From: Amphiscolops sp. MND2022
Taxonomy: Eukaryota
Reading direction: 5' to 3'
Assembly (NCBI GenBank): GCA_964187785.1
Contig: OZ076409.1
Span: 48,920,001-48,984,000 of the forward strand
DNA: 64,000 nt
Shown here: positions 1 through 25,615 of the stretch, in pieces
Layout: each line of letters begins with the position of its first letter
Numbering within the stretch: the first letter of the stretch is position 1
Translations under genes and position numbers: made by a program
Notes under the pieces: model-generated
The model's input: the letters and a program-made list of their open reading frames with translations, nothing else
Told to the model about the DNA's origin: nothing
The model's database searches: none

Positions 1-1219
1 TGCGAGGTTCTCTGCCTGGTGACGGGGCGTGTGAAACAAGAGTACGAAGGCTCTATTCCCGCGCTAGACGAACCATTGTATGCTTGCAAAGGTAACGGGA
101 AGAACAAACCACCATTGTTGTAGGTTTTAGTTATTTGTCGGAACTGTGATGATAATTAGAAGGCACTGCAACTACTGAATATTGGATCCTTTTGTTCCTG
201 AATTTGTTTTCATCTTGGAAGAGGTATTTTCAGTTGAGATTTTCTTTTTACCTTATTTTTTTCCGAAGAATTGTAGTGTTCTTTTTCTGAAGGTGTTTTG
301 TAACAGTATACGAAAAATATCACAGTGCCACTGCGCCTCTTTTGTTAACGTTTCAGTTAAAAAGAAACGTTTTCCGAGTTATAAGGTCAACTTCGGAGAA
401 TTTTTAACACTGTGAGATCTATTATAATTTGACTAAAAACCACTCTGAGCATATTTTTTGACTTTGAAAATATGACAGCCGCAGTCTGGCAATTTATGTC
501 CTTAATGGATGCGTCGACTATTGCTTTTGAAATATCTTATTTCAATAAACAAGACGCCCTCTAAGCACCGGGATATTTTCCACCCTGTTCGCCTTCACCA
601 ACTGAGTCATAGCTATTTTGGGAGGGAATAGGATCTAAAGAATAAGATCTAAAATTTAGTGATTTTAGATCTTATTCCCGCCCTGAAATTTTAGATCTTA
701 TTCCCTTTTTTGACTTTAGATATTGTTCCCGCTGTATGCTATTTTAGTTACTTGACTATTTTAGTTACTAGTAGCTATATAAAATAGTCAAGTAATCAAA
801 AGGTGGAGAGTGTGGAGATTTGGCAAAATTTGGGAAAAAAACGCGTCACAGATCATGATTTTCCTCCCCCATTTATAAAATGTGGGGTCGGAAAATAATA
901 ATTACCATCTCTGACTGTATTAATGCCTTCGGGCAAGGCTTGCTGCGCACATGTGTCTCACAGTCTATATATGTGCTGACTATACTCACCCTTTAGTTTA
1001 ACTTTTAAAACATGGAACGACTTGAAATCTTCAATCAATTAAATCAGAATCGGATACATAATTTTGTTAAGTTCGATAGTCGCAATCCGCGATACATGGT
1101 AACTTTGTGTAGTCAGTAGTACTACTGTGATGATACCTCGACTGAGTTTAAAGCTTAAACTCAAAAGCGCTTCCTTAAATTATGATAATTAGTAAAGGAA
1201 CACTAGCATAAAAAAGTGT

Positions 1220-1953
1220 TGTAGCGATTACCTATCGAGTACACGATTTCGAAAATTTCGATGAAAATTTCGTTCAAAGGACTATATCCCCTCTACTGAA
1301 AAGTCATATTCCGCTGGACGGCAGCGTGTCTTTATTCAAGTACCTGCCCACAGAATTGAAGAGAATTTGAGCAAAAGACTCCGGGCAGACCCCAACCGAA
1401 CGAGAAGACTGCAGAAAAACACGGCCGCTGTCAGAAAAAGACTCAAATTTCTGTCAAAACGGACTGAACTTTGTTCTAGCCAGTGCTTTCTTCAGCGAAG
1501 CGTTACAAGACGCTGTGATTACCGAAAATGAGTCAATTGGCTTGACCAAGCATCCGTGCTTGTGTCCCCGGCTAATTGCTGCCTCAAAAGTGCTAATTAT
1601 GTAGTAATTTTCGTATTTTCTTGTTGTAACAGCTCGTGAGCTACTTATTTCGATTTCCTGTGTAACTTCGAAAAAACTTGATTTTTCCTTTCCACCACTT
1701 GCATTTTTTAAAGGCTATCTAAGCGTTGGTTCCGAAGAAAAAGCGTAATGCGCGCTACTGTTAGCAATTACAGACTGGATCAGGCCGGCGAGCACTTCTT
1801 AAGAAGCGGAATCCTCCTCTGACGGGACATTTCTTACCCGAAGGAGGCAAAATGGACTCATGGCCATGGGCGCCTGTCCCGGGCAAATACCCATGCCATG
1901 TGTTCCTCCTGCTCTTATGGTTACGGCGACAATGGTGAGAGCTTGTCGTTACA
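1220..1953 (+). repeat. 5' LTR (734 bp)
   Basis: TG...CA ends. Matches 19732-20465; the only difference seen is cgatttcGaaaa vs cgatttcAaaaa. Confidence 0.97.
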
Positions 1954-1969
1954 TGGAGAACACATTTTA

Positions 1970-1986
1970 TGGCGACCACAGAGGGA
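1970..1986 (+). promoter_or_regulatory. Putative primer-binding site, tRNA-Arg-like
   Basis: TGGCGACCACAGAGGGA resembles the complement of a tRNA-Arg 3' end (TGGCGACCACGAAGGGA, recalled from memory). It starts 16 nt after the LTR end. Confidence 0.6.
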
Positions 1987-4345
1987 TCGCTTCGAAGTGC
2001 TTCCCTTAATGGTTTTAAAATAGCCGACCCTCTGGTGATTGACGCCAAGTACGACCCGACTCTGATAAAAAGAAGAGAGAAGCAGAGTTTTTCCACGTTT
2101 TTACCCTGTGTGTGTTATTGAAGACTTCAAGCCCGGTGGATAAAGGTAAATCTTGTAAAAAAGCGCTGTATGTTGTGATTTTCATGCTTTTTCAGTAGTT
2201 GACAGGTAACGATCGAAATAGCCTACCCTCTTAACGGGTCACTCATAAAATTGGTCTAGCAAGCCGTTGGAAGGCTGCTAGAAGTGTTAGCAGGTGTTTT
2301 CTAGCCTTTTTCAGCTTTTTATGACCAATGAAGTGAGTGTTGAGAAGAGGACGATCCTTGCTCAGACGAATCTTACAATCTGCCGAAACGAGTTATACGA
2401 CTCACCGGTCCCATTTCTCGTACAGGCAACCTAGAGGAATGAAATTTGGTGGAGACGTACTACAAATGCTGACGTGTCTAATGGTGCAACTCGTTTGTCT
2501 CTAGCTGTTCTGGGTGATGAGCAAAAAGAACGAGAAGACACGACTCGTCAGTCCGGGTTGTATAATATTTTTGAGTCAGGTTGAAAAAATTTTTTGGGTT
2601 GCTCAAAATTTTGTGTACGACCACTTGCCAATGTTTTTACGAGCCTTCTGTAACTAGGTGTGTGCTTTTGCACCTGTTTTGTGCGAAAAAAGTGCGTTTT
2701 TTCATGTATTTTCGACGAAAAGTGCCAAATTTGGCCATTTTGAGGCGAAACACCTACATGAGCGCGAGCGCTCTTGGTGCTAGCCACACACCTGCAGAAA
2801 TTAAATAAAAGTAGCTCAGGACTCTAATGAGTTCGCAAAAAACGCGACGAACTGCTCAAAGTTGCCCGAAAAGGCACTTAGTATAAATTTTGTGAGGAAA
2901 AAACCCCGTTTTTGGAAGACTGAACATTTTTAGCACTTTGAATTTGTGGGGGAACTTGTATAGAAGCTTTTAAACACCCCCGTATGGTTGCAATTAGGTT
3001 GGGGTACACCTGCCGGTACCCAACAATACCCATTTTGGTAATTATAACCACTACTTCTTGAAAAAAGTTACGAGAACTGTGATTTTGAGGTTTTTCTATA
3101 GTACTCTTAGAAGAAACCCAATTTGACTATTGACGAACACTTTTACGCTTAGAATAGCCCCCGGGCTATTATTTTCAGTTTATTCAGTAAATTTAACGAT
3201 CTACAGTGAAGACCGCATCCCAAAATTCCTTTTCAGTGCTGAGAAAAGTAGAAAAATGCACTGAAAAACCTCCATTTTCCTAAAATCCGGACTGTCTCTG
3301 AGCTAAGGTCGGGTCATTGATTCTTGGACCTTAGCCAAAAGGTGGTTGCATTTTCATAACCACCACTAAAAAGAACGCTACTGCCGAAAATTTGGTGGAC
3401 GTAACTTTCACCAAAGTCGAAAAAAGTTCTCTAACGTTTCAACTTCAGGGGACTGTAAAACTGCCGAAATAATCCAAAACTGACGGACTGTCGGTGCCTC
3501 GTGTTTAACGGGCACACCTAATCGAGGGTTTATCCTAGTACTACGAGTAGTGGGGCAACACGTAGGTCCCATTTTTTTCAGCCCTACCACTTTTTGAGGT
3601 GACCCTCTTAGCCAATTTGTGAAAAAAGTAGTCCAAAGTTGTGTTTTTTTGAGTGTTGTCCAAGTAAGGTCGGAACCTCAAATAAGCGTCCGCGCTTTCA
3701 TTTGATGGTTTCACCGGCATTGTACACGCTCATCGACTGTAGCTACAAAGTTTCGTGTCAATCCAACCGGTACTTGGTGAGAAAATAGAAAAAACGTACC
3801 ACTCAAAAAGTTGGGCATAGAGGGTAATTTTTCAAATTTTTCCTGAGTGATCCGAGTACCTTAATTGAAAAACGAGGTTGAATTGCCGTTCATTTCTATC
3901 ATTTGTACCAGATACTACGTTGTTTTGCAAATTTTGAGCCCGCTAGCTTTTTTTCAGTAAAGCACAATCTTGAAATAAGCATGAAAATTGATGTATCTTG
4001 GTGACTAAGGGTACCGAACGTCCGAATCAGCCTGAATCTTGAAATAAGAACCTTAGCTTAGATTTGATTCTGCTATCGTGTAGTACACCTACCACAAGGT
4101 CAGGTGGCCAATTTTCAAGTGTCTCCGACGATTAGACGTTGCGCTCGAGGCATCTTAGTCATTTTTAAAGAAACCTGAAAAACTCAAAAATTGTCTGAAA
4201 ACTCGATTGTTTGCGAATTAGCTGTTCCGCAAGCCCCAAACGCACGGTTTCCGGCCCCACACCACGGTATCAACGCGCGCTGTGTAAGTTTCACGCCGGT
4301 ACGACCCCTAGATTGATTTTTGACTTTTTCGAGACGTGTGAAATC

Positions 4346-5294
4346 ATGAAAACTAACAGTTTGCGTAACCTTTGGAATTCTATAACGAGAACATTAAGCC
4401 GCACGAACACCCGGCGATGCTCTAATCTTTCAAGAGGGGGGAGGAAGGACACGTCGCGACGCGCTGAAGCATCGAAAACACCAGACCCAACGGGGTGCGA
4501 GACAAATCTCAGTGCAATATCAGACCTGACCTCAGACCCCAGGGAGGAAGATTGGCCAACTGATGACAGTTTCGTTATGGAACCCGATTTTTCAGACCCT
4601 ATGTCAGACGACGCATCGGAGAAGTATCAGGCCAAGCCGGTTGCCAGGACTACCGATGATATCGGAGGTTCAGCTGACGAGACAGGAAGTCAGACCCATA
4701 CTTCCAAATGGTTGCTGGACTTACCCAGCGCTGTCACACCCTATGGTGTAGATGACACTGGAGCGTGGCCTAACTCCAACAAGACGAATGAAGATGAAGT
4801 AGAAATGAGCTGCCTGAATGCGACGGGGCAATTCAAAGCTCCAAGCACTGCGAGTGAGGGCACAGCTCATACCACAGAAGTACTCCAACAAATGTCCTAC
4901 ATTGGGGGCATGGATTATGTCAGGGCACGTCTTCAAGAAGCTACGGCTCCCCGAGCATCTGGGAAGGGTAAGCAAGTACGGCCCCCAGCTTTATTAGCAC
5001 TAACCAGTACTACAGTACCTCATGGGGATTCACGCTCATCCTCACCCTCATCAAAAGCTGCATCTGCCCGATCTTCGGCATATCGAGCCGTACATGAAGC
5101 AGCGAAAGCGCGCAAAGCTCTATTAGATGCTCAGATAGGCGTGAAGCAAGCTGCTTCACAACTGTCTGAGCGCAAGGCAGGCAAGGTGCGATAGAGAGCA
5201 ACAGTCAATAATGGAGGAAATAGAAGCCGTGCAGGTTGAATTGCGAACATCAACTGAGCGACAAGCGCAAGGACATTAAATTCAGGCCGCCCGA
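4346..5294 (+). pseudogene. gag: Disrupted N-terminal part of gag (disordered region, then coiled coil)
   Basis: ATG at 4346. The frame ends at TAG 5192, but the +1 frame continues as a coiled coil (QARCDREQQSIMEEIEAVQVELR...) through TAA 5277 into the 5295 ORF. Confidence 0.7.
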
Positions 5295-8200
5295 ATGGAT
5301 GCTATGGGCTATCGAATGGCCGAAATGAAAGACATGGTGGCCGAAAGAGAGGTGCGCATGGAAGCTCAAATGCAAGAGGTATGTTCACAGATACAAGCAA
5401 TGGGCACTATGTTGAAAAATATCCAACCTCGACCCGCACCAGCGAGCAACACTATCAAAGAGTTGCTGCAAGACACTGATGTATCACTGCCAAAACCCAT
5501 GAAAAGCGTCTCCCTCAAGCCAAAAGAGAGTTTGACGACTGCAACAAACCCATCTGGCTCTAAACAGCACTTGGCGAGGTACGCGCCTTTGCCACAACCT
5601 CTGGTCTCAAATGGAGAGGCCGCATCAACCTCGACGAAATTTATCCCGTCTGCGGTATCAACAAAATATATTCCACCCACGACCAAAGCTCACAAGAAAG
5701 AACCAACGTGCGAGGTGAGAACTATCGACACTTCAAGCATGGGTATCACCGGCCTGCGAGAGCCCACACGCACAAACGATCTAACTGAAGTCACCAGCAC
5801 CTTCCAAACAGCAAATGCAACTTTGGGAGAATCAGCTGCAGAATTCCAAACCGCGGACGATGGGTTGCCCCCGGGCAACCCATGCGCCAGCAGCACCCGA
5901 CGCCGAGAAGTGACTATCCCCGAGAACACCGATGACTCTGTCAACTCAACGCGAGGCAGCAGTATCCCGCCACCAGCTATCACTGAAGAAGCGCCTATAT
6001 CACCGGAGCAACTCAGGTTTACCGAGGCAATATCCAAGGCCATGTCCAAGGAACTGGCGCCGCTAATTGCTAATCGAGATCAAACTAGGGTCCGCCCTAC
6101 GGTGTACAAAGGCACTAATGATGGTACTGTCGATGGATGGCTTCCAGTGATGAAGCGATTTCTAGAAAGGGTGCATGCAAAATCACCAAAGATCGACAAA
6201 GCCTGGGCTATCATCGACCACCTGGAAGGGGAGGCGAGAAATTATATAATCAACAAATCTGAACCTGAACGAGACGAGCCCGACAAGGTATTCTCTCTCT
6301 TGGCCAGCAGGTTTGGAACCGGTGGAAACCGCATGCACGTCAGGCAAACCTTCATGTCTCGCGTCCAACAGGAAAAAGAGGATTGGATGCAATTCTTGGA
6401 CGCATTGGAAGGTCTGCGCACCCAAGGTTTCCCAGACGAGCCTATCACTACACGTCGTTATGAAATCCTGCAACGTTTTATAGATGGCGTCAATGACCCG
6501 ACGCTGCGACAAGAGTTGGCCGTGGTGTACGCTTCGGAGACATATTTGACTGAGCCACCAACTGTAGAATCCCTGAGATTCACCACGAGACAATTGCAAC
6601 GGCATCGCCCAAACACGTCAAAACCTTACGACCCAAGGTATGCAATGAGATCGAGGCCTAATCCTTTCGTGCCAGGGAAATTGGTTCACCCGGCACCAGG
6701 CCTACCACAAAATGTGCTGCCTCCAAACCAAGGACAGCGAGAGGCAAAGCCCCAGATGGCCCCACCAGGCCCTGCATCGGTAAAACAGGCTCCTGCACAG
6801 CAGCAACCAGCGAGAGTGATTCCCCAAGGAGCATGCTTCAACTGTGGACTACCGGGTCACTTTGCGAGGGAATGCCCACATCGAGACCTAGCAAGGAAAC
6901 CCGCGGCTCGCGCTGCACCCGAAGAGCGAGTGAACCTGTGTGAGAACAATGTGGCCTCTGCATGTTCTGGCCCCGTATTCTGTGTTAACTGTGGCATGAC
7001 CGAACACTCTGCATCACAATGCCAAAATGTTCCAGTACATGAGGATTTGGCCTACAGCCTCTGGGCTGAACAGCCATCTGCTTCTCAAACGATGAGTGAC
7101 AGTGAAATGGTACTCATGCTACGCCCTGCTGAAGCCGCTCACGTGGCGACGCCTCTTACCGTCACATGTGGCAAAATCCAAATCCAGACGAACCCAGAGC
7201 CAACTACTTTTGATCCCTCGGGACGCACTATCATGTCTGCCCGACTACTGTTGGCGGTCGAGAGAGAAACCCGCCCAGAACTCACCATAGACGCTTTGAT
7301 AGAAGAGATGACCGCAAACGAGAATTGCCGGCAACTGACTCTGCCCCAACGGGAAGAGTGGCAAGTGAAAGGTGTCACTTCGACGTATCATGCCTATTCT
7401 CCGATTCCAGTCAAAGTCTGCATAGATGGTGTTGACATGCGTTTTGGCGCCACTATTATTACTGATGCGTTTCCTCCTGGAAACTGCTTGGGACCGCAAG
7501 AGCTGCGCTGCTATAACATTGATGCTCAAGAACCAACTGGTGAAGCGAGAATCGATGAGCGTGCGTCGCTCGTGGTTTCATTCGTGGTTCCCGATGCTGC
7601 TCCCGTGCCATTACGTGGTCTAATAGACACTGGATCAGGAGTATCCATCCTCACCTTCTCAGCCTACAATCGAGTCGCCGTGCGCACTGGCACACTCTTA
7701 CGACCTTATGGTATTGACTTATATGCCGCGAATGGGAAGACGATCAAAACTTTTGGTCTAGCGGAGAAAGTCAAATTCCAATTGGGAGGCTATGAATTGG
7801 AAACTAACTTAGTGGTAGTTGATGACGCTATGGGAGTGGAAGACTTCCTCCTGGGCAGAAACTTCCTAAGAGCTTATCAGGTCTTGGTAGACCTAACCGC
7901 GATGAAGGTCATTGTCCGAGCTCCCTCTGAACCGGTGTGGTACCATGCCCACGCGCAAGAAAGTAACGAATCGCTCAATTCGTCGGTAGCGATTGCACAG
8001 GACGTAGTGTTGCAACCTTTTGAACGCGCGATACTACGCGCTAGATTGCTTGTAGACAACTTAGAACCTTTCATGTTTCGAACCGTGCTAATCAATTTTC
8101 AAACACCTAACCGAATGTTAAAAAACGCCATCTTTTTAGAGGACACCGTGGCGACCGTGGGGGAAACTGGTTTCCTTTACGTCAGTTTAGGAAATCTCAC

Positions 8201-11174
8201 CAGCAACGTACAGCGGATCAAAAAGGGCACCCTTTTGGGAACCGCGGTACCCGTGACGATGGTTCATAAAGCCATCCCCCAAATTGTCCCCGGACAATCA
8301 AATGAAACTCTGCAGTCAAATGCAAATTATGTTTGTAAAGTTTACGAACAGATGAACCTTGATTCTTCTTCTGAATATAGTTCTTCATCTGAATTTGAGT
8401 TTTTGTCCTCTACCGAACCGTCAGAACTAGGCTTGTCCGAGCGTGAAATAAAAAAACGAACCGATCCGGCGCTAATGGCTCCGATACCGGGCCCGGAAGC
8501 ACAACTCGACGAAGTGCGCGGTTTGTGGGGCTCGACCGCCAGCGACACGCTTAGTAAACTTTTGAACGAATTTGATGATTTGTTTATGAAATTCAAAGCC
8601 GACATTGGCAAATGTAAAATCGCTATGCACCCGGTGGAAGTAGAGCCAGGGGCTATACCTCACCGTGAAGGTGCAAGACGAATGTCGCCTGACAAGGCAG
8701 AACGTGCTAACCAAGAAGTCCGTGACTTGCTAGCTTTGGGAATGATACAACCTTCCCTATCCCCTTGTGCGAGTGGAATTGTTATGGTCAAAAAGAAGAG
8801 TGGTGAATTGCGATTCTGTTGTGACTTTCGACCACTTAATGAAGTGACCATCAAAGACGCTTATCCCTTGCCACGTATCGATGAGAGTCTATCCCGATTG
8901 GGCAAAGCCAAAATCTATACCAGTATTGACTTGGCATGGGCATTCTGGAAAATTCCTGTCCGAAAAGCCGATCGTCAAAAGACTGCCTTCGCTTGTGAAC
9001 TTGGGTTATTTGAGTGGCGGCGTATGCCTTTTGGTATGTGTAACGCATCAGCAACATTTCAACGGGCAATAGCGCGAGCGCTACAAAGAATAGTGAACCG
9101 CGAAGGAAGTATGGTTATGGCCTATATCGATGACATTGTGATTGCTACCAAGACCATCGAGGATCACATGGATAGACTATGCGAAGTATTCCAATGCCTG
9201 CGTGAGGCCGGCTTCAAAATGAGAGTCTCCAAGTGTGATTTTATGAAATCGGAGATCAAATATTTGGGCCGAGTTGTATCCGCAGATGGTATCAAGCCAG
9301 ATCCAAAAGCTGTCGCCAAGCTGAAAGATTGGGATATCCCGCGAACCAAAACTGAATTGCAAAGTTTCTTGGGTTTTGCCAACTACTATCGGGATTTTAT
9401 CCCATGGCATGCAAAGCTAGTTGCCCCTTTACATGCGATGACGGGCACAGGCTCTCCATTTTTATGGGGGGAGGAGCAGCAGCGAGCCTTTAACAGCATC
9501 AAAGTGGCACTAATGGAAGCCACTGCTCTGGCGCAACCCGACACTGAAGGCGAATTTGTTCTTGACACCGATGCTAGTGGTGTAGCTATATCAGGTATTC
9601 TTCACCAATGGCAAGGACCACCTGAGAGTCGCAAATTGCGACCGATTGTATTCGGAAGCAAAAAGTTAACCTCTACGCAAGCAAAGTATGGAGCCCCAAA
9701 ACTGGAAATGTACGCTGCATACTATTTCATCTTGAAAAACCACAGCTATCTCTGTCCACGGAAATTCACACTGAGGGTCGACAATCAGGCCCTATCCTGG
9801 CTAAAGACATATTCGATGGATCAGGCGATTATTGGTCGATGGATTATGGCTCTTGAAAAATATCACTTCGGTATTGAGCACCGACCCAGAACGCAACATC
9901 GAAATGCTGATGGTCTTAGCAAACGAACAAATGACTACAAAAAACACGAAAAGCAATTAAAGGGTTTTCCCGCAATTGCAGACAAATGGGATTTCCTATC
10001 ACAAGAGGAATACAACAAACTCCCGCTAGCCCCATGGTTTGATGTCCACGGACGTGTGATACCAAATCACCCAGAATTGCCTGCACACTTGCAGAGGTTG
10101 GCTAGCCAAAGTTCACCCGAAACCACAGTTGCCGCTCCCACGCGAAGGAGCGGACAAAGCAAACGAAGTGCGATCATGCGCGACGAAGCCATGAGAGCAC
10201 CCCTACCTACATTGCCAAAACCAGAATTGGCACTGCCTGCCGAACTTTATCCAGAGTATCCTGAGGATTGGTTGGAACTGACCGAGGAATATCAACGAGA
10301 CTATTTGCTCCCCACGCATGCTGCTAACGTACCATCAAGAACCACTTATCCACTGACGGAAAAGCAAGCAACTAGCACCGCACCAGAGCACGTAAAACAA
10401 GCCGCGTTTGTGGTAAACAGTATATCGATGGAATTGCATGAACATGCTAACACAGTCCATGGGTTGAAAGATCTACTACTGGCACAAAACCGTGACGTCC
10501 ACGTCTTGGCTATCAAGAAATTGGTAATGCAAGAGTCAATAGATCATGACATCTTTCCGGAAAATGTACGTGCCTTTGCCAAAAACTACCACAAACAGAA
10601 GAAGAACCTTCTGCTGGTAAACGCCAACGGGGTTTTGTGTGTAAAGTACTCCAAAAGTCAAAGAATTTTGCATGAACGCCCCTGCATGATAGTGATGCCC
10701 CAATTGTATCAGCATGAGATATTGTTCAAGGCCCACGACGCGATGGGACATCAGGGCATCGCGAAAGTCTTGGCCAGAATTCAAGAGCGCCACACTTGGC
10801 CAGGCATCCGCCGCACCATTGGACAATACGTCAGCCAATGTATCACTTGTCAACAAGTACGTGACAAGCCTGGTGATGTACGCTTTCACTTGAAAAATAT
10901 CCAAAGCGGCTATTTTAACGAGCTAGTCCAATATGACCACATGAAAATTTGTCCCTCTGACGATGGTAACACAGGGATCTTGGTTATTATTGATCATTTC
11001 TCTAAGCTCGCAGAAGCTGTGCCGTGCAACCACGATGAGTATGATGCAGCGACCACTTCAAAATTGTTGTTGCAGAAATGGTTTGCCCGCCATGGAACGC
11101 CGACGAGAATGCAGTCAGACAATGCTCAGCAGAGGCTCCCAACTTCACCGCGGCAGTATCTGCTGAGTTTATGA
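5295..11174 (+). CDS. gag-pol: Gag-Pol: capsid-like region, two CCHC knuckles, pseudo-protease, aspartic protease, dUTPase-like insert, RT, RNase H, integrase N-terminal half
   Basis: CFNCGLPGHFAREC (6834), CVNCGMTEHSASQC (6981), LIDTGS (7626), FLLGRNFL, LRFCCDFRPLN, YPLPRID, MPFG, YIDD (9123), VLDTDAS, NADGLS, HHCC zinc finger, IIDHFSK, SDN. Confidence 0.95.
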   Translation: MDAMGYRMAEMKDMVAEREVRMEAQMQEVCSQIQAMGTMLKNIQPRPAPASNTIKELLQDTDVSLPKPMKSVSLKPKESLTTATNPSGSKQHLARYAPLPQPLVSNGEAASTSTKFIPSAVSTKYIPPTTKAHKKEPTCEVRTIDTSSMGITGLREPTRTNDLTEVTSTFQTANATLGESAAEFQTADDGLPPGNPCASSTRRREVTIPENTDDSVNSTRGSSIPPPAITEEAPISPEQLRFTEAISKAMSKELAPLIANRDQTRVRPTVYKGTNDGTVDGWLPVMKRFLERVHAKSPKIDKAWAIIDHLEGEARNYIINKSEPERDEPDKVFSLLASRFGTGGNRMHVRQTFMSRVQQEKEDWMQFLDALEGLRTQGFPDEPITTRRYEILQRFIDGVNDPTLRQELAVVYASETYLTEPPTVESLRFTTRQLQRHRPNTSKPYDPRYAMRSRPNPFVPGKLVHPAPGLPQNVLPPNQGQREAKPQMAPPGPASVKQAPAQQQPARVIPQGACFNCGLPGHFARECPHRDLARKPAARAAPEERVNLCENNVASACSGPVFCVNCGMTEHSASQCQNVPVHEDLAYSLWAEQPSASQTMSDSEMVLMLRPAEAAHVATPLTVTCGKIQIQTNPEPTTFDPSGRTIMSARLLLAVERETRPELTIDALIEEMTANENCRQLTLPQREEWQVKGVTSTYHAYSPIPVKVCIDGVDMRFGATIITDAFPPGNCLGPQELRCYNIDAQEPTGEARIDERASLVVSFVVPDAAPVPLRGLIDTGSGVSILTFSAYNRVAVRTGTLLRPYGIDLYAANGKTIKTFGLAEKVKFQLGGYELETNLVVVDDAMGVEDFLLGRNFLRAYQVLVDLTAMKVIVRAPSEPVWYHAHAQESNESLNSSVAIAQDVVLQPFERAILRARLLVDNLEPFMFRTVLINFQTPNRMLKNAIFLEDTVATVGETGFLYVSLGNLTSNVQRIKKGTLLGTAVPVTMVHKAIPQIVPGQSNETLQSNANYVCKVYEQMNLDSSSEYSSSSEFEFLSSTEPSELGLSEREIKKRTDPALMAPIPGPEAQLDEVRGLWGSTASDTLSKLLNEFDDLFMKFKADIGKCKIAMHPVEVEPGAIPHREGARRMSPDKAERANQEVRDLLALGMIQPSLSPCASGIVMVKKKSGELRFCCDFRPLNEVTIKDAYPLPRIDESLSRLGKAKIYTSIDLAWAFWKIPVRKADRQKTAFACELGLFEWRRMPFGMCNASATFQRAIARALQRIVNREGSMVMAYIDDIVIATKTIEDHMDRLCEVFQCLREAGFKMRVSKCDFMKSEIKYLGRVVSADGIKPDPKAVAKLKDWDIPRTKTELQSFLGFANYYRDFIPWHAKLVAPLHAMTGTGSPFLWGEEQQRAFNSIKVALMEATALAQPDTEGEFVLDTDASGVAISGILHQWQGPPESRKLRPIVFGSKKLTSTQAKYGAPKLEMYAAYYFILKNHSYLCPRKFTLRVDNQALSWLKTYSMDQAIIGRWIMALEKYHFGIEHRPRTQHRNADGLSKRTNDYKKHEKQLKGFPAIADKWDFLSQEEYNKLPLAPWFDVHGRVIPNHPELPAHLQRLASQSSPETTVAAPTRRSGQSKRSAIMRDEAMRAPLPTLPKPELALPAELYPEYPEDWLELTEEYQRDYLLPTHAANVPSRTTYPLTEKQATSTAPEHVKQAAFVVNSISMELHEHANTVHGLKDLLLAQNRDVHVLAIKKLVMQESIDHDIFPENVRAFAKNYHKQKKNLLLVNANGVLCVKYSKSQRILHERPCMIVMPQLYQHEILFKAHDAMGHQGIAKVLARIQERHTWPGIRRTIGQYVSQCITCQQVRDKPGDVRFHLKNIQSGYFNELVQYDHMKICPSDDGNTGILVIIDHFSKLAEAVPCNHDEYDAATTSKLLLQKWFARHGTPTRMQSDNAQQRLPTSPRQYLLSL

Positions 11175-14122
11175 AAGCCGCCCAAGTGACCAAAGTAACC
11201 TCAACTGCTGGCCACCCCAAGACTCAAGGGTTGGTAGAGCGACAAAACCGAACGTTACTCACCCTACTGCGTGTATTCTGCTCTAGACGAATGCGTGATT
11301 GGGACCAGTATTTAGATGAAGTCATGGGTGCATACAACTCCACACGTCATGCCACTACTGGGTTCTCCCCGTATATGCTGACCAGAGGCATGGAAAAAGC
11401 TATACCCCTGACTTTCTTGTATCCCGAATTTGCAACTCAGTCATTCGAATCACACGAAGCCTATGTGGAACATGTGCTGGCTCGACAGCAAGAGATTCAT
11501 GACTTAGTCCGTCGTAACACGCATCAAGCCCAGCAGCGACAAAAGTTGAAATACGACCGAGCAATTCGTGCTAAAGCCTTTGAAGTGGGCGAACCTGTTT
11601 GGGTATTCTGCCGATACATTCCTCAAAAAGGATCTCCTAAATTGATGAGAGCATGGCGTGGTCCTCACAAAGTAGCACGAGTGCTACAAGAGGGACGCGT
11701 CTACATACTTGACACTGGTCAGAAAGTACATTTCGAACGATTGAAACCGCACCATGGTGGTCCAACAGAATGGGCAGCTGTTCCTGCGCATAACGGCGAG
11801 GTTGCTATCATCATGGACCCTGACCCAGAACAATCCCACGAGGAAGTGAGAGACGATGCCTCGCAACCTTCTTATCGTGCGGAGGAACCAATTTCAGAAG
11901 CCAGTAATGCCTCTTTGCCTTCTCGACAAAGACATTGGATGGACACACGGTTGCGCACACGCATGCGCGCTGGTGGCAGCCGCCTACATTATCAACAATT
12001 TGACTATTCTTCGACTGAGTCTGACGACGAACGTTCTGATGTACTCCTGTCGAGTGTTCAGGCTAATCCCGATGAGAGTGCTATCTTGTCATCACATGTG
12101 GATGAACCTGCGCCTATTCCCGAAATACCAATATCACCACTGCCTGCTATGGAGGCTCTATTCTCAGAGAATGAAGCAGTGCCCGACGTCTTGGATATCG
12201 CCCCAAATCCTACTATCCACGCACCCACCAAAAGTGCCGGCACCTCTCTGACCGGTACATCCGCCCCATTATTGACAAATCCATCTCTTACGGATATGTT
12301 GAGTAACTTTCCCATTTGGCCCCTAATCGATGACAATGTTCTCAACCCCACCTTAGACGACAACGGTGCTGAAGCACCAATGACCAATGACGAAAAGGGA
12401 TTTATTCCCCCTACGACAGTTCCCACCAACAACAACGCAGCTACTACCACGAAACTCTCCAATGCTCCTAGAGGGCATAGACCGCGGGGACGTCCGCCAG
12501 GCAGAGCGAGGCCGCGAGCCTCGCTGCCACGTGGCCACCAACAGAGAGGTGCTATTAGAGGCGCTCGCAAAAGAGGCCGTCCCAGAGGAAGACCTCCTCG
12601 TACAACACACGCCAGACCTAACACCTCTACCCGTGTTCGTCGCACTCCATCTGTGGACACTGACTCTTCTGCCCCTAGCGCGGCGGTTACCTCAGATCAA
12701 GCAGCACCGCCAGAATCAACCAACGCTCGCTATGGCCTGCGACGCTATCGTATTCCCAGATATCGTTGCGGAACCTGTGGCCTACGAGACTGCGAATGTA
12801 ACTACATGGTCCACGCGGGCTTCCCAATTAAACCCCAGGGAGTCCTGCTAGCACGTGAACAGGAGAAATCGCTTCCAAGCGGCACGGTTGACCGTTTGGT
12901 TATTCGAGCCGAGAAGACTTATACTGGGCTACAACGCAGCGACACTCCATATCCTGTGGACTATATCCTATCCAAAATGAAAGATTCTACGATAGCAAAG
13001 GCCCCGTGCCCAAGGTTCAAGGAGTGGACCTATGATCTTATTGGTTTGGAATTCACATTACCTATCACTGTTCCCCCCTTGCCTACAAATATTGCTTTTG
13101 GTCCTTTCAACTATGAACGAGAGCCTATCCAAATGGTACGCTGTATTCCTGCTGACCTTTTGTATGACAAGTACAATATCACCGCAAAACCAGGAGACGT
13201 TTATCAGCCTGCAACCAACTGGTGGCTACTACTTACGGCCAAACAAGTGTCCGACCTGGTTCATCCCAATAACTTGAACACCTGTCTGGAGAGTTTGCGG
13301 ACAATGGCCTCTCCTGATAGAATCACTTGTTTCCACACCATAGACCTGTATCGTGGTAAAATTAAGTTTGAATGGTGGCTGGAACTTATCATAGCAGTCT
13401 TATCGAACTTTTCACGAATCCGATTCCTGGACGAATGGACACACTCATTTCCTAGTCCTGTATCACTCCAATCAGCCCTACACGCACTGGATACATGGTC
13501 CAGGGCTAACATTGATAATCAATCGTTGCCGCGATCTGTGTGGCAAGACTTGGGCGCCATTAAAGGCCTCCTTCCGAACACATGTGACGATGCTCTCTCC
13601 AATGACCCCGGACGAGAGTTAGTATACCATGGAGCCGTGAGACCTCAATTGGTTGACTATGTGCAGTATGCCAATACGGACTTCCTGCAAACTCCCCATC
13701 ATATTGTTTTATGTTGTCCCGCAAACCTTGAGACTAATTCTGCCGCTCTTCGTTACGTCATTCGTGAGCATGGTGCAGATGCAATCTTTCAACTTCGACC
13801 AGAGGTTGGCAATATTGTGACGCTACCCACATCTTTGATAGACGGCCATCCTCAGACTATCAACCTTTTAATCACACGAGCTACACCTCGCTGCCCTATG
13901 CTCGCTGATATTCTCTTTGGATGTCTTGATCATTTGAAAACGTTACTCGAGCGCTTAGAGGCGATAGAAATACACTTTGCCATCATTGATCCTGAGCGCC
14001 CAATACGTAATCTTTTCGACTTTTATACCTGTTTGATGGACGTATTCGCTGACACGCCCCTGACCGTCGTTCTTCACGATCGCGTTTACGTATCTATTGC
14101 AAGCGTCGCTAGCTTTCCGTAG
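11138..14122 (+). CDS. pol: Continuation of pol after an 11-bp insertion: integrase C-terminal half, disordered linker, AT-hooks, Cys cluster, two macrodomain-like repeats
   Basis: Removing 11127-11137 restores SDNAPNFT. Then HPKTQGLVER (catalytic E), AYNST.H.TTGFSPY, WRGPH (GPY/F) and VHFERLK. GRPRGRP motifs at 12480-12600. Confidence 0.9.
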   Translation, partial: PNFTAAVSAEFMKAAQVTKVTSTAGHPKTQGLVERQNRTLLTLLRVFCSRRMRDWDQYLDEVMGAYNSTRHATTGFSPYMLTRGMEKAIPLTFLYPEFATQSFESHEAYVEHVLARQQEIHDLVRRNTHQAQQRQKLKYDRAIRAKAFEVGEPVWVFCRYIPQKGSPKLMRAWRGPHKVARVLQEGRVYILDTGQKVHFERLKPHHGGPTEWAAVPAHNGEVAIIMDPDPEQSHEEVRDDASQPSYRAEEPISEASNASLPSRQRHWMDTRLRTRMRAGGSRLHYQQFDYSSTESDDERSDVLLSSVQANPDESAILSSHVDEPAPIPEIPISPLPAMEALFSENEAVPDVLDIAPNPTIHAPTKSAGTSLTGTSAPLLTNPSLTDMLSNFPIWPLIDDNVLNPTLDDNGAEAPMTNDEKGFIPPTTVPTNNNAATTTKLSNAPRGHRPRGRPPGRARPRASLPRGHQQRGAIRGARKRGRPRGRPPRTTHARPNTSTRVRRTPSVDTDSSAPSAAVTSDQAAPPESTNARYGLRRYRIPRYRCGTCGLRDCECNYMVHAGFPIKPQGVLLAREQEKSLPSGTVDRLVIRAEKTYTGLQRSDTPYPVDYILSKMKDSTIAKAPCPRFKEWTYDLIGLEFTLPITVPPLPTNIAFGPFNYEREPIQMVRCIPADLLYDKYNITAKPGDVYQPATNWWLLLTAKQVSDLVHPNNLNTCLESLRTMASPDRITCFHTIDLYRGKIKFEWWLELIIAVLSNFSRIRFLDEWTHSFPSPVSLQSALHALDTWSRANIDNQSLPRSVWQDLGAIKGLLPNTCDDALSNDPGRELVYHGAVRPQLVDYVQYANTDFLQTPHHIVLCCPANLETNSAALRYVIREHGADAIFQLRPEVGNIVTLPTSLIDGHPQTINLLITRATPRCPMLADILFGCLDHLKTLLERLEAIEIHFAIIDPERPIRNLFDFYTCLMDVFADTPLTVVLHDRVYVSIASVASFP

Positions 14123-14344
14123 AACTTTTTTTTTCCTTTCGCTCTTTTTTTGTTTTTTTTGTCCGCTCGATTAAGTTTAGTGAATCGACACGGAGTTTAC
14201 TTGAAACAAATACGTTACCTTTTCTTTTAATGTTAATTTGTGATATCCTATTACTTCCCCTGGTATTACCCTTAAAATGACCTATGGTGTTACCCTACTA
14301 TCAAGTGTGCTACAATCGACCTGCAGTCTTTCAGAGTTTCCGTC

Positions 14345-17300
14345 ATGAACCAAGGTGACGATGAAAGCAACTACGTCCCTCCAAGGTCTTCAGATGACTC
14401 TCCTGCCTTGGGGCAACGCGTTTACGACACTGCGCGTGTCCAGCGTACCCCACAAATTGCTTTCATTCGAGACAGACTCGACCAAGGTCTGTCGCCAGCT
14501 ACAGTAGCCGGGGTGGCGGCGATCATAGCCCAGATGGAGTCACAAGTGCAAGCCCCTATGCTGACGATATCTATCACTTCAGGCTTTCCTGGGTTCCAGC
14601 GATCTATGACGTTCCAAGATGGAGTGTGGTACGGCCATGATCTCACACATCACTTTACGGATGATCGTGCAGCGATCTCATACAGTCCTGCGAATGGCGG
14701 AGTCCATCAGACCAGATCTCTACAGATCCCCTCTTGCCCGCCTCCACCTCCACCGCCACCTCCTGTATCGATGCCACAAACAGTAGTGCGTGCAAGCACT
14801 TCTGCTCCTGCAGTACCTAACTTGTCCAATCAACCAATGGCAGAACAAGCAGTTATCTCAGCACTGCAAGCAGTAGCTATCAACCCTAATTACGCTGATT
14901 TCATGCGATCCATGGAGCAGTGTTGGCCTGAACTACGCCAAATTGCTCTGCCCACTGTCACTATTCGCAACGAAAACGCCACTTTGAACCAAACAAGTCA
15001 AGATGCTATCACTATTCCTCACGTCAATCCTCAGTCTGAACAGCCAGGGCACTCCCGCACCGTGACTGTAGAGCGCAGTCGTTCGCCTTCCCGCTCTTCT
15101 CAAAAGGGGGGAGGAGAGAGCCGCCCTGCCTCCAGAAAACGCAATGACCGTTCTCCAACAAGAATGAGTGCTCAACAACCACTAACTGCTCGTGACAGCC
15201 CCTCGAGCAAGCCACCACCCGACAAAAGGATCTCCAACGAGAAGGCCACAACCTCCAAGACGCCAAACCAAACAAAATCAAAAGTGTCGGAAGCATCCGT
15301 GCTTCCCTCACCCCAGCCACAACCAAACGCAACAGGCGAACAACAAGGACTGCCGCAGCCACCATCCACGCAGTCTACAACACGCGAGTCGCTGGCTCAA
15401 CGAGCGATTCCTAAGCCTTCTACATCAAGACAGCCACAAACGGAGCAAACTGTGGGTTATCAAGGCACCCCTGAACCGCAGCGAACTGTCAAGGACATAA
15501 TGGGTGATTACCCAGGATTGAAGGTAACCAACAGTGGTCCAACTGGAACCCCACTCCGCAAACAGGCAATTCAACACCCAACTAAGAGGACCTTTACAAA
15601 GCAACCGACGTACCTGAGTCCAATGCAAAACACGAAGGGCACGCTGATCACCAAGGACTCCCGACGTATCTGGGAATCGGCAGTTATTGTATCACCCGAA
15701 TGGCTGTTTGAAAAGAACATGTGTCCTCCGAATGACGAAGAGCATGCGAAATTGAAGAAGGCGAATGTACCTGTATTCATGAATCGTCCAATTCGCCCCG
15801 ACCACACCCCTACTAATGAGCCGCCATGGCTAGGGAAGGCAATGAATATTCTGCCAAACGTAGAAGACAACTACTTGGACGCCCTCAACATTGACCTTCG
15901 TGGGCAATTCGCTGACCGATACTTCCTCAACGCTGGAGAGACCTTCGAGATCAACCCGCGGTACGCCCGTGACCTCGAAGCCCAGCTACCAATGCCAAAA
16001 GAAAGGTTGCAGCGTGCGCGCTTCGCCTTACTTGTAGACTCGACCTTCCTCAAAAATATCCCTATTGACAATGTGCTGTCAGACGTGATGGTTTTCACTC
16101 TACCGCTGTCACGTATCCCCGAGATGGCTGAAGTGTTGGTCACCATGTTTGACCCCGAGATGACGGGGACCTTCAAAGAGCCACCCCCACGCAGAGTGAT
16201 CATCAGTAACGTTTTCGATCACATGGCCTGTGAAGGACTAATGGCCCAGATCGCGAACGTTGAAATCATAAATCCAACTCCAGCACAGCAAGCAACAGTA
16301 CGCAACGCAGCACTGAATGTGGCCCGAGCCATGGAAAAAGCCCAAAATATCCTAAAGAATAAACTCAACGTGCCAGTCTTGTTTGTAACACCCCCAGGTT
16401 TCTGCCAGTGGCATCCCGCCTTGCAGAGATTTATCTATATGGTAACAGAAATTTGCAAATGTAGAGAAATAGACTTTGCGATCTGCGCGCCCAATATGCG
16501 GATCAGCTCCGACGACTTGCGTCCCTCCTGGCTTTCCTACATGGGGTACGTTGCCTCAGTGTCTAAAGTGCTACAGTCAGTGGAAAAGACAGGGAACGCG
16601 CAGCTGACAATCGATGATGCCATCTATTTTGATCACGGCACTCGTATGGGCTTGTTAGTATTCAACAACAACGGAGAAAGGCGAGTCCCAGAACCTAGCA
16701 CGGCTGAATGTGAGGCAATCCGCCTGAATAACTGGATGGAGCGCGCGCGCTCCTCCGGTGGAAAGACTTGCATTAAAACTGATCTTGCGGAAGTCACCGC
16801 CATAATGAGCAAAATCCCCAGCGACCGAGAAGTGGAACGAGCCATCCCGCGAGTTCAATTTGCCCAGGACCTCACTATTGACCAACTATCAGTGGGAATG
16901 AGGTATATCGCTGCAAAATTGACGAGCGAGACTCAGGCTGAAATCCAAGCCTTCAGCAGCACCTACGACGCTTGGTACCAGCGGCTGCAAACTACCACCG
17001 TAGCAGACATTGCAAAAGAACTTGGGATGTCAACCGACCAATTTGCCATCTGTTTGGGATTGGGTTGGAGTCCCGATGTTATTCGAGTTGAGTTCGGCTT
17101 GGACGAACACTGGTTGATCGAAATCAGCAAGATTATCGGCACCATGCAAGTAAACGAACTCTTTGCACTGATAATCACCTTCGGGCAGAAACGCTTCGTA
17201 GCTGGCCCAATTATGATATTGACCGACCTGGTTACTGAGTGTAATCTGGAATGGCTATTTTCGTGTTTAGTGATTGCGCGAGGCAATATCTCAGGCCTCA

Positions 17301-18715
17301 CCGCCTTAGCCAAGCTGCTACAACGAAAAGACGCTCAGGATTATCCCGCTCACCTGGAGCGCATGACAACTTCGTTATATCACTGGATATACTGCAGTCT
17401 GGTCTTTGCCTCGGGACTTTTCGTGGGCGTAGATAAGCACCAACCATTATATGACGGACGTCAGCTGGTGACCGAGGTAGCTGGATTTCTGACACCTAAC
17501 CAGCTGGCAGATTTCACTTTGGCTGAAGTCGAAGACCTTGTACCGGTGTTAGCACCCGTGCTAACTCCGATATTTGGCCCAACCGGGATACTTCGCTATC
17601 CCACCAAGCCTCTGCGACTCGCCTGGGAGACACCAACAGTATCCATTCTGACTTTTCTGAAGAATGTAAAACCGTACAACTATCAGCAGATGCTTGAACG
17701 CGGGCTGTTCCTGCTAATACCCCGCATGTCTACCACCATAAAGAACGAAACGCAGCAGGACGAAAACCTGGCCGGCATTCTCAAAGCCCGGACAAAGAAG
17801 GCGTGCCCTTTACCTCGCGAATACGGCCCGGTGAATTGGTACAATTCGCCCCTAGATCACCATGGAATCCCACAGCGATTCAATTGGAGTTTCGCACACC
17901 TCAGGAAGTACGTGACCGAATGCGTACAAGCCATGGGCGGTCACACAAACCAGGGGTATAATTTTCAGAAGATCAAGCTTCCAGCCAGGTACTGGCGAGG
18001 ACCCATCGGCTATGCGCGGGCTAAGCCAATCAGCATGGTTGAGAAAGGCTTTCATGAGCAGTACGCCTATCGCGATCACTACAAACTAGGCGTGTGGATG
18101 TGAAGGACCCTGGAGGAACGCCAAGGGCGCCTAAAAGTCTTGATCATCCCTCCACAGACAATGCCAGTTTGGAATCCAGAGGCGAGGGTCACTATGGGAA
18201 GCGACATGCCAGCGGAGACCTGCTACCATGTCATGGAACTGCTGAGTGATCCCCTCGGACCAGAATGGGAAGCCTCCAGGCAAATTATAGAACATGAAAA
18301 CAGGGACAACTGGTCCAGAGCCTGCGGGCTCTGGGGCCGACCTGATCTACGCCCGAAACTCAGTGCCAAGCAGAAACGACCCATTGCCACCCGCAATAGA
18401 CCGCTAGATCTACCACACCTGTTTAATGCCAGTAGATTGGATGTGCAGATCCCAACCTCCACGTCGACCACAAGTTCTGCCAATGTTAGCGGCTCAGCCA
18501 ATGCAGCGCAAGAACATTCGCCAGAAGTCTCAACTCCCGTAGCTGCAGAAAATGGCCCTAGTGGCTCAAACACGACTCCCAGGACCCATGAAACTGCCAG
18601 CGCCGAACCAAGGCCAGTCCTGCGAGAAGGAAATGTGCGAAGAGGATCCCTGTCCGAATCACAACCGAAAGCCGACGTCTCCCCCAGAGCGCGTCACTTA
18701 TCCGCCACCCAGTAA
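14345..18715 (+). CDS. Extra ORF3 in env position (about 1,456 codons, one internal TGA at 18101): Pro/Ser/Gln-rich N-terminus, SGNH-hydrolase-like domain, helical C-terminal region
   Basis: The 1252-aa ORF and the 18140-18715 ORF share a frame and are separated only by a single TGA. Both lie inside the LTR pair. No signal peptide is visible. Confidence 0.8.
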
Positions 18716-19731: not shown

Positions 19732-20465
19732 TGTAGCGATTACCTATCGAGTACACGATTTCAAAAATTTCGATGAAAATTTCGTTCAAAGGACTATATC
19801 CCCTCTACTGAAAAGTCATATTCCGCTGGACGGCAGCGTGTCTTTATTCAAGTACCTGCCCACAGAATTGAAGAGAATTTGAGCAAAAGACTCCGGGCAG
19901 ACCCCAACCGAACGAGAAGACTGCAGAAAAACACGGCCGCTGTCAGAAAAAGACTCAAATTTCTGTCAAAACGGACTGAACTTTGTTCTAGCCAGTGCTT
20001 TCTTCAGCGAAGCGTTACAAGACGCTGTGATTACCGAAAATGAGTCAATTGGCTTGACCAAGCATCCGTGCTTGTGTCCCCGGCTAATTGCTGCCTCAAA
20101 AGTGCTAATTATGTAGTAATTTTCGTATTTTCTTGTTGTAACAGCTCGTGAGCTACTTATTTCGATTTCCTGTGTAACTTCGAAAAAACTTGATTTTTCC
20201 TTTCCACCACTTGCATTTTTTAAAGGCTATCTAAGCGTTGGTTCCGAAGAAAAAGCGTAATGCGCGCTACTGTTAGCAATTACAGACTGGATCAGGCCGG
20301 CGAGCACTTCTTAAGAAGCGGAATCCTCCTCTGACGGGACATTTCTTACCCGAAGGAGGCAAAATGGACTCATGGCCATGGGCGCCTGTCCCGGGCAAAT
20401 ACCCATGCCATGTGTTCCTCCTGCTCTTATGGTTACGGCGACAATGGTGAGAGCTTGTCGTTACA
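19732..20465 (+). repeat. 3' LTR (734 bp)
   Basis: Direct repeat of 1220-1953. Confidence 0.97.
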
Positions 20466-22012: not shown

Positions 22013-22527
22013 TGTAACGGCACCCTTTGGTGCAGCAAAATCAGTAGCGGAAACCCTATGTAGCGGAAACCGTTAAAATGAGTCTTTTTGCCTAAAAATC
22101 TTTGTTTGGTACTTGGAGCCCATGCTCCCCAGCTTGTAGCCATGTGGTCTGCCAGATTTATGCCTGCTTTGATGCATTTCCACTGTTTTTAGCTGTAATT
22201 ACCAGCCCGAGAGCTAGTTTTGGCAATTTTAGATACTATTCCGATGTCACCCTGGAACCGGAAATTCACCTTATTCTTGGCATTGTTTTTAATTGCTAGT
22301 TAAGTGGTGGTCTTTAGAGAGTCAGGAAGATGCCCGTTACTATTAGCAATCAAAGGATAGGACCGGTTGGACTGTATTCGTCGAAGCAACCACGGCCCCG
22401 TGGCGTATTTCACCCCTGGAGGAAAATGGATCTGTGGCGATCGCCTGTCCTAAGCGATTCACCCTTTCCTGCAGTTTCCTCCACCTCTGCTAACGCGTTA
22501 AGTGACCGATAACAGCTTGCCGTTACA
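22013..22527 (+). mobile_element. Solo LTR related to the giant element's LTR, internally deleted copy
   Basis: TGTAACGGCA...TGCCGTTACA ends. Similar to 24949-25433. Flanks GAC/AAC. Confidence 0.8.
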
Positions 22528-24239: not shown

Positions 24240-25615
24240 CGGGAACGGCCCAAGTCGGTGCCATATCTAAGGCTCAAAAAAGCAAAAGGACTTCAAAGTG
24301 TCAAAGTATTCTCTTTTACAGTACCCAAAAAACCCAAAAGTTGGACCGAATTGGCGCGCCAGGGGGAACGTTTTGAGATTTTTCCCCATTCTGTCGCAAA
24401 CCATCGGCATTTTTTTGGATTTTGTAACATCCATTGTTGCAAAACATCAAAAAATTGAAGGGGGACCCTTTGGGGAAAATTTTTTACGAAAAAAAGTCTC
24501 ACAACGCCAAAGAAAACTGAAAGGGGGACCCTTTGGGATTTTCAACGTCCATTCTGTTGCAAAAATGAAAGGGCCATTTGGAGAAAAATTTCAAAAAAAA
24601 GTCGCACAATTCCGAAAAAAAACTGGAAGTGGTGACCATTTAGTCTCGTCCGGTATTGTATGTAACGGCAAGCTCTGGTACAGCAATATCAACCGATTTT
24701 GCAACTTTGACATGTTCAGAAATTTTGTCAAAAATTCTAATCCGATGTGTGACGTGGCACTGAGCATGTGATTGCTCTTTTCGCTGTTTCCACGAAATTG
24801 ACAGGTACTTCGACAACAAAGAGCAAGAACGAGCAAAAACACGGGCGCGCCGCCATGACAGAAGCCAGAGACGGCAAGAACATCCGAAAATAGACTCTTT
24901 TTGAGGTGCTAACACCGGTTTTATCGATTTTCAGCATTATGCTACCTTATGTAGCGGAAACCGTAAAAATGAGTCTTTTCGCCTAATTGTCCTTGTTTGG
25001 TGCTTGGAGCCCCTGCGCCCCAGCTTTTTAGCTGTGTGGTTTGCCATATTCGTGCCTGTTTTCATGTATTTTCAGTGATTTTGGCTGTATTCAGTAGCGT
25101 TAGCGCTAGTTTAGATCTTATTCCCCAATTTTAGATCTTATTCACATGTCACCCTGGAACTGGAAATTTACCTTATTCTTGGCATTGTTTTTATATGCTA
25201 GTTAAGCGGTGGTCTTTAGAGAGTCAGAAAGATGCCCGTTACTATTAGCAATCAAAGACTAGGACCGGTTGGACAGTATTCGTCGAAGCACCCACGGCCC
25301 CGGGACGTATTTCACCCCTGGAGGCAAAATGGATCTGTGGCGATGGGCGCCTGTCCCGAGCGATTCACCCATTCCTGCAGGTTCCTCCACCTCTGTTAAC
25401 GTGTTAAGCGACCGATAACAGCTTGCCGTTACAGTATCTTACGCGGAAAGAAAGGAAAAACGTTTTTGGTTCAGTTTGCTGGGCCAACAGGTACATTTTG
25501 GCGACACCTTAAAAATTTGCAGAACTTTTAGTAGTACTATTTTGGTCACTTCATGTGTATCAAAAAAAAACACTGACAAAAAACTATGACTATAGTCGAC
25601 TCTTTTCTCAAGAAA
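24240..25615 (+). mobile_element. Helentron/DINE-1-like element split by the solo LTR at 24661-25433
   Basis: Starts CGGGAACGGCCCAAGTCGG and contains GGGGACCCTTTG repeats. Resumes at 25434, colinear with the intact copy at 57898-58399. Confidence 0.75.
24661..25433 (+). mobile_element. Solo LTR (773 bp) of a family related to the giant element
   Basis: Perfect 14-bp terminal inverted repeat TGTAACGGCAAGCT/AGCTTGCCGTTACA. GTA/GTA flanks. The last ~230 bp align to the 3' part of LTR 1220-1953. Confidence 0.85.

Follow-up and report, generated by a model that had tools for sequence, protein, structure and literature searches.

Comparison of Ty3/gypsy LTR retrotransposons within one genome supports the existence of an uncatalogued plus-strand cis-acting RNA structure, under selection and lying within the likely transcript. 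Comparison of natural copies shows a long hairpin (helices P2, P3 and P4), a complementarity between its loop and a 7-mer upstream (P1), a second complementarity between an A-rich bulge and the spacer that follows the LTR (P5), and a U5 hairpin that crosses the LTR end. The leader and dimer signals of LTR retrotransposons found in searches of the literature are mainly those of yeast Ty1 and Ty3, with the Ty1 hetero-loop model disputed, and this clade offers a fold of 90 nt for which 14 lineages supply natural compensatory variants. As to function, we tentatively favour, with a little less than even confidence, a non-catalytic leader switch in which head-to-tail RNA dimerisation would be combined with gating of the tRNA primer.

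The window (the whole stretch of 64,000 nucleotides analysed here) holds one element of this clade and two further LTRs:

1220..1953, plus strand: 5' LTR of a family A1 Ty3/gypsy element, 734 bp, TGTA...TACA, 99.6% identical to the 3' LTR
5280..11174, plus strand: gag-pol frame with zinc knuckle, protease, RT, RNase H and the start of integrase
19732..20465, plus strand: 3' LTR, with a motif copy at 20335-20422 and no spacer behind the motif
22013..22527, plus strand: eroded, shortened family B LTR, with a damaged motif at 22398-22483
24661..25433, plus strand: solo family B LTR flanked by a target duplication of 3 bp, motif at 25301-25389

The start of the 5' LTR is placed where the flanks differ in 28 of 30 copies, and its end, 1953, by the pattern of LTR end plus primer site. 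The element shows the PR-RT-RH-IN order, paired LTRs, primer site and purine tract of the Ty3/gypsy group. Its gag-pol frame, which is preceded by a leader of more than 3 kb, stops within integrase in the window copy; in the interval 11045-18715 the end of the pol frame is followed by an overlapping 1,025-aa frame, and a 1,275-aa ORF within the same interval has no match in Pfam, Atlas or PDB. RT matches elsewhere in the genome sit in open frames of up to ~3,300 aa.

A first-pass annotation had placed a pseudoknotted structure at 1823..1910, and all of its hairpin helices, loop and upstream 7-mer are found there, as are its other three copies in the LTRs above. The parts are as follows:

1813..1819, plus strand: C-rich tract, a possible but weak alternative partner (P0) of the GGAG strand
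1823..1829, plus strand: P1 5' strand, complementary to the apical loop; 91/98 cells paired across 14 lineages, five double-change pair types
1842..1846, plus strand: P2 5' strand, pairing with 1906-1910; 51/56 cells, three double-change types
1847..1853, plus strand: A-rich bulge, AAA invariant in 29/29 rows
1849..1854, plus strand: P5 5' strand, the A-run and next bases; 79/88 cells
1854..1905, plus strand: long hairpin of P3 (16 bp), P4 (3-5 bp) and loop
1854-1870/1890-1905, plus strand: P3 strands; 208/222 cells, 26 double-change types
1872-1874/1882-1884, plus strand: P4 strands; 48/56 cells
1875-1881, plus strand: apical loop, complementary to the P1 5' strand
1906..1910, plus strand: P2 3' strand, pairing with 1842-1846

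P3 has one U·U mismatch in the window copy, and its base lies 20-22 steps from the loop in 14/14 lineages. Some of the finer claims change on comparison. The solo copy was said to keep every helix, and it mostly does, but its GCC/GGC stem contains one C·A, with an outer C-G pair as replacement. The bulge, described as identical, keeps only its A-run across the clade, and the two LTRs, described as otherwise dissimilar, align at 46-65% identity from ~1705 to the LTR end and at 26-51% upstream. The limits 1823..1910 suit the helices, but the structured region runs past the motif and the LTR end (1953) to the primer site.

The comparisons cover a single genome (1.07 Gb, 1,929 contigs) and elements with the tRNA-Arg primer site. 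A pattern of LTR end plus primer site has 3,212 genome matches against 6 for a control pattern, and for the motif in its A/B form the counts are 1,862 and 0. Forty sites were picked for differing spacers from the first 100 matches listed, and 39 parsed; 30 further sites came from a pattern that selects E copies deviating in the spacer, a choice biased against P5. Eight of these 70 primer-anchored loci were dropped (six eroded, deleted or rearranged, two duplicates), and 24 old copies, eight of them unparsed, were picked out of 69 matches. The final set is 78 copies in 14 lineages (A1-A3, B, C1-C3, D1, D1b, D2, E, F, G and H), each represented by one natural copy that was selected on sequence similarity without regard to structure. 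Relative to the window element, RT identity is 81-91% in A-D and 73% in E; RT relatives at 53-66% identity are present in protein collections and absent from this genome. A scan of metagenomes found two short, distant loci, and a scan of viral sequences none. At one locus (L168, G000:C8:50381016-50384679) an old family G LTR fragment has been amplified as a tandem repeat of ~695 bp.

Folding of single sequences gives the hairpin a z of -3.2 in the window copy and only -1.4 in the solo copy. Given 17 C and D copies in a plain MAFFT alignment, RNAalifold predicts P3 and P4 without guidance. In this C+D alignment 93.3% of the 493 cells of the named structure pair, against 36-54% in slid controls, and the covariation score of 0.366 exceeds the 0.252±0.014 of shuffled alignments (0/500 as high), bearing out the proposal of a conserved, covarying structure; the double-change pairs number nine, which is equalled in 33/500 shuffles. 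A covariance model built from families C and D gives 41.2 bits to the window copies, 39.9 to the solo copy and 29-46 to A and B copies, misses the damaged motif at 22398-22483 and detects just 1/10 E loci (15.9 bits). Under a null in which the positions evolve independently along a tree from a paired root, a structural alignment of the 14 lineages gives P 5e-5 for P3 and joint P values of 1e-4 for P1, 2e-4 for P4, 7e-4 for P2 and 0.012 for P5 (0.33 for its double-change count alone), values that are optimistic because the alignment was built around the helices and the E register was set by structure. The complementarity of loop and upstream 7-mer is kept, as had been claimed. The strand proposed from G-U pairs also stands: G·U cells exceed A·C cells by 64 to 17 of 432, and plus-strand RNA is therefore what folds.

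In family E three P1 pairs and two P5 pairs are changed on both sides and all five still pair, so that loop and upstream 7-mer remain complementary; the P5 changes are at adjacent pairs, U-A to C-G and G-C to U-A. The P1 code is common to A-D and F-H and different in E, and its core is near-invariant outside E, with position 1 running through C-G, U-A and U·G within A-D. Predicted duplex energies are matched by family, since P1 of E with E reaches -13.1 kcal/mol and the E 7-mer with other loops -5.6 to -9.7, and P5 reaches -5.3 kcal/mol for E with E, where the E bulge attains at best -1.9 on the spacers of other families. The two-sided changes in E and the variation at P1 position 1 argue against the view that the hairpin alone is real and that P1 and P5 are chance complementarity of short G/C-rich and A/U-rich blocks whose conservation has other causes. 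We give that view scarcely any credence, even though the P1 and P5 compensation is mostly that of a single lineage, placed in register by its structure, and G-rich and C-rich blocks allow several interchangeable pairings.

Rfam covariance models, run over window positions 1100-4200 at E up to 10, gave two chance matches, neither of them on the motif, and none at eight loci of other families; searches of open-access literature text returned no description of motif or spacer. HDV-like, hammerhead, twister and pistol ribozymes and retrozymes are also small, structured and carried by retroelements, and crossed pairings occur in some of them; the motif shows no family match with these and no catalytic core. 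HDV-like ribozymes have a P3 with an L3 loop between P2 and the P1 3' strand, a P1.1, and a catalytic C in J4/2. A descriptor of this type, used without a positive control, fits 0/14 lineages on either strand, and the window copy has only 4 nt between the helix and the P1 3' strand; an alternative HDV-like fold (GGC/GCC, with the loop pairing to CCCAT) is broken in the window copy, and its P3b covaries as a plain helix. The hammerhead core (CUGANGA and GAAA) is likewise in 0/14 lineages on either strand, and the lack of fit to both families agrees with the first-pass annotation. ENE triple-helix elements have a U-rich internal loop, and the bulge here is A-rich in 14/14. A new self-cleaving ribozyme or exonuclease-blocking fold would suit the compact crossed pairing, the invariant A-run and a P1 core conserved beyond the needs of pairing. 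To the missing matches are added, on the other side, that almost no unpaired bases besides the A-run are invariant, that a cut here would separate R from U5 and the primer site, and that a full tRNA primer is in use, so that a self-made primer is unnecessary; we consider such a fold very improbable.

The probable place of the motif in the RNA is read from a landmark upstream:

1704..1715, plus strand: T-run (1704-1709) and then A(A/C/T)A, common to the 12 aligned LTRs, the probable U3/R boundary

Conservation climbs sharply behind the T-run. With the T-run, this rise and the switch points of chimeric LTRs (see below) suggest that R spans ~1700-1765 and that U5 holds the motif, ~115 nt into the RNA; the RNA 5' end would be near 1710, or else the T-run may be a TATA-like box with the start ~30 nt later. 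A canonical poly(A) hexamer is present downstream of the T-run in 2/11 LTRs, and none is common to all.

Downstream, the structure extends across the LTR end:

1912..1960, plus strand: U5 terminal hairpin that spans the LTR end and takes in spacer bases, in 11/11 lineages
1954..1969, plus strand: spacer from LTR end to primer site, 16 nt, of which 1963-1968 is the P5 3' strand
1970..1987, plus strand: primer binding site, 18/18 complementary to the 3' end of host tRNA-Arg(TCG)
2028..2047, plus strand: stretch ending CGCCA, with pairing to the primer site possible in families A-D and not in E

The spacer, unusually long for its place, measures 15-16 nt in 65/70 loci (range 11-20), and in this clade it is linked to an LTR hairpin. 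Neither the pairing of bulge and spacer nor the U5 hairpin was in the first-pass annotation. P5, by comparison a newly seen pairing possible only in the 5' leader, would join the bulge (1849-1854) to the complementary U-rich spacer (1963-1968); of 62 copies, 59-62 keep its first six pairs, and only 49 and 30 keep pairs 7 and 8. In nearest-neighbour folding ensembles its probability is at most 0.05 in 11/11 leaders. The spacer lowers the fold energy of the U5 hairpin by 1-11 kcal/mol in 11/11 lineages, and as random 8-mers achieve this in 1-135 of 300 trials, this hairpin is strong on its own only in A3 and E. Both P5 and the extension of the U5 hairpin need the spacer that follows the 5' LTR, and the 3' LTR copy can form neither. 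Retroviral U5-IR and U5-leader stems also form a hairpin beside the primer site that involves the LTR end; here, in contrast to U5-IR, a 15-16 nt spacer parts the LTR end from the primer site and pairs with two partners. The stretch at 2028-2047 may compete with the tRNA for the primer site. A match to the tRNA body of at least 6 nt, within the motif and common to all seven families tested, was not found.

Self-priming was rejected, as the spacer is complementary to the hairpin 3' strand in A and poorly so in B, and the primer site fully matches the tRNA; the 18/18 match to host tRNA-Arg(TCG) excludes a self-primed element of the Tf1 type. The genome has a tandem array of tRNA-Arg genes (G000:C9:57537788-57576392; L228, L229) with a period of ~174 bp, and 99 of the first 100 listed among the 254 genome matches to the tRNA-Arg pattern lie in it.

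The motif had been called a pseudoknot, and the P1 complementarity does covary as such a fold would require, but the lengths make it doubtful that it forms in a single molecule while the basal stem stays closed. With 2.8 Å per pair and 6 Å per free base, a coarse estimate, a straight monomer with P1 formed and P2 closed needs 87-92 Å, and the linker gives 36-84 Å (14/14 lineages); with P2 open, 76-81 Å are needed and 108-150 Å available (14/14). That leaves three ways for P1 to form: as an intermolecular helix, with P2 opened, or with the hairpin sharply bent.

The switch that we tentatively favour takes up the first of these. Two hairpins would lie antiparallel, each loop pairing with the partner's 7-mer beside the hairpin base, so that two P1 helices would make a head-to-tail dimer that requires no long linker. 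The dimer would also place the invariant A-run next to the G-C-rich P1 helix, on which it might dock. In an alternative state P2 would open and the A-run would pair with the spacer (P5), gating the primer site. RT copies the spacer first and would therefore strip P5; and as only the 5' LTR has the spacer behind it with which to form P5, its fold would differ from that of the 3' LTR. In keeping with this model every helix covaries, the P1 and P5 energies are family-matched, and P1 and P2 both covary in 14 lineages whose straight closed-P2 monomers are all too long. Weighing against it, P2 opening or hairpin bending also fixes the length without a dimer, family E is the sole source of P5 compensation, the nearest-neighbour probability of P5 is low as given above, and the P1 5' strand has local competitors. 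These are the upstream C-rich tract and the linker, weak candidate partners for the GGAG and P1 strands: the P0 pairing is favoured in whole-leader folds of several families, but its hairpin has a z below -1 in only 2/14 lineages, and P0 was set aside as the main GGAG partner.

The chief rival has a sizeable minority chance in our judgement. In it P1 would be an intramolecular pseudoknot or kissing pair with no role in dimers: P2 opens or the hairpin bends, GGAG pairs upstream, and P1 would compact the leader for tRNA placement and the start of RT, much as does the Ty1 5' pseudoknot, which according to PMC4974528 is required for efficient initiation. The linker is long enough with P2 open in 14/14 lineages, whole-leader folds often favour the upstream GGAG partner, and P5 and the U5 hairpin link the motif to the primer site. 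The covariation of P2 (joint P 7e-4) and the weakness of the upstream hairpin run counter to it, and it leaves unexplained the pattern of chimeras between families.

Chimeric LTRs switch parent at -257, -230, -221, -202, -198 (twice) and -189 from the LTR end, and no switch point falls within P1-P4 in 12 trios; two lie at -48, the 3' edge of the motif. U3 and R-U5 have been exchanged between families as modules at L097, L110, L111, L231, L234, L246 and L259. On the 3' side, 30 loci combine a B-type spacer with a non-B leader start; in nine of these B R-U5 is joined to a C/D-type leader start, and the E leader is in none. The switch is at the primer site in 5/5 B/C-D chimeras tested; all families have the identical 18 nt there, and a switch at that place therefore needs no further homology. 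An E LTR end followed by an A-D leader start has no match genome-wide, and 0/10 distinct E loci contain a non-E part; among the first 100 sites listed the main E spacer occurs 25 times and the B spacer ten. Families with the same P1 code recombine, and E, with another code, showed no chimeras, a pattern that fits P1 as a partner code of the kind that HIV-1 DIS represents but is confounded, in that E is more distant (RT 73% vs 81-91%) and a few events may have been amplified. Gag specificity, timing or unfit chimeras would give the same lack of E chimeras.

The chimeras bear also on a role in RNA fate, in which the structure would distinguish the 5' from the 3' LTR in 3'-end formation or serve as a protein platform for nuclear export or translation. 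The restriction of P5 and the U5 hairpin extension to the 5' copy, the lack of a canonical poly(A) hexamer common to the LTRs and the leader of more than 3 kb before gag-pol are all congenial to such a role. All 5'-side chimera switches, though, are at or upstream of -189, which suggests that the motif is in U5 and missing from the 3' end of the RNA. Among Rfam families, no export element or IRES matches, and a 7-bp covarying loop pair is not needed for such control; we think it improbable. Of the functions first suggested for the motif, then, packaging or dimerisation and RT initiation gain from its position, the spacer pairing and the chimeras, and ribozyme-like or nuclease-resistant action gains nothing.

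By analogy, the motif would work most like the Ty1 SL1a-SL3a pair, in which membership is not claimed. PMC5454406 describes complementary 7-nt loops and proposes for them a symmetrical two-kiss dimer and a Ty1/Ty2 recombination barrier, its authors stating that they lack physical evidence; a later study (PMC6844567) found no support for that kiss in dimers. Both systems have two non-palindromic complementary 7-mers in the 5' RNA of an LTR retrotransposon, here with compensatory change. They differ in that Ty1 is a Ty1/copia element with its motif partly in gag, whereas this is Ty3/gypsy and wholly in the LTR, and in that one partner here is carried on a hairpin of 20-22 steps, with comparative rather than genetic support. 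This partner is displayed in a hairpin loop, and the hairpin for the upstream 7-mer is the weak one noted above. In the Ty1 5'-terminal pseudoknot S1/S2, as outlined in PMC4974528 and PMC5454406, S1 joins the first 7 nt of the RNA to a site downstream of the primer site. P1 resembles it as a 7-bp crossed helix in the 5' region tied to the initiation of reverse transcription, but is local and upstream of the primer site, the link to which is made by P5.

According to PMC3187697 the HIV-1 DIS kissing loop limits recombination, and according to PMC11381356 Ty3 uses a 5' palindrome. As there, a short leader code would choose the co-packaged partner and so limit recombination; unlike those palindromes, the loop here is not self-complementary and needs a second strand. 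A DIS of the palindromic type was rejected, since the loops are not palindromic and no 6-nt palindrome occurs at one place in all 11 leaders. Loop palindromes do occur elsewhere in the leader, in 7/11 lineages at +36 to +48 and in 6/11 at -16/-17, which counts against the dimer switch. Family E and families A-D form a natural swap pair, with which the idea of a dimer code is directly testable using short RNAs.

A stronger version of the dimer switch, which we rate as unlikely, is that this is a new fold coupling partner choice to priming, so that reverse transcription starts only on the dimer. If true, a non-palindromic loop/7-mer code would be a barrier between retrotransposon families that is readable in the chimeras of a genome, and the A-run would either dock on the dimer helix or lock a 15-nt spacer before the primer site. 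Such a spacer would imply the removal of ~15 nt from one cDNA end at integration, in an element with 3-bp target duplications.

The 15-16 nt spacer would make the cDNA end longer than the LTR by that length, and integration would therefore call for much more trimming than the customary 2 nt. Target duplications of LTR elements are usually 4-6 bp. In family B solo LTRs with both ends readable the duplication is exactly 3 bp in 7/7 (24661-25433 in the window, and L032, L043, L044, L046, L061 and L065); a search of open-access literature for 3-bp target duplications returned nothing relevant. The solo LTR at 24661 sits within one copy of a dispersed repeat family of short GGGG-ACCC-TTT units, found in the window at 24232-24670, 37983-38420, 48905-49700, 57894-58211 and 60019-60963. 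Nearby, at 26443-28848, is a 2.4-kb element with terminal inverted repeats of ~360 bp that are 98% complementary.
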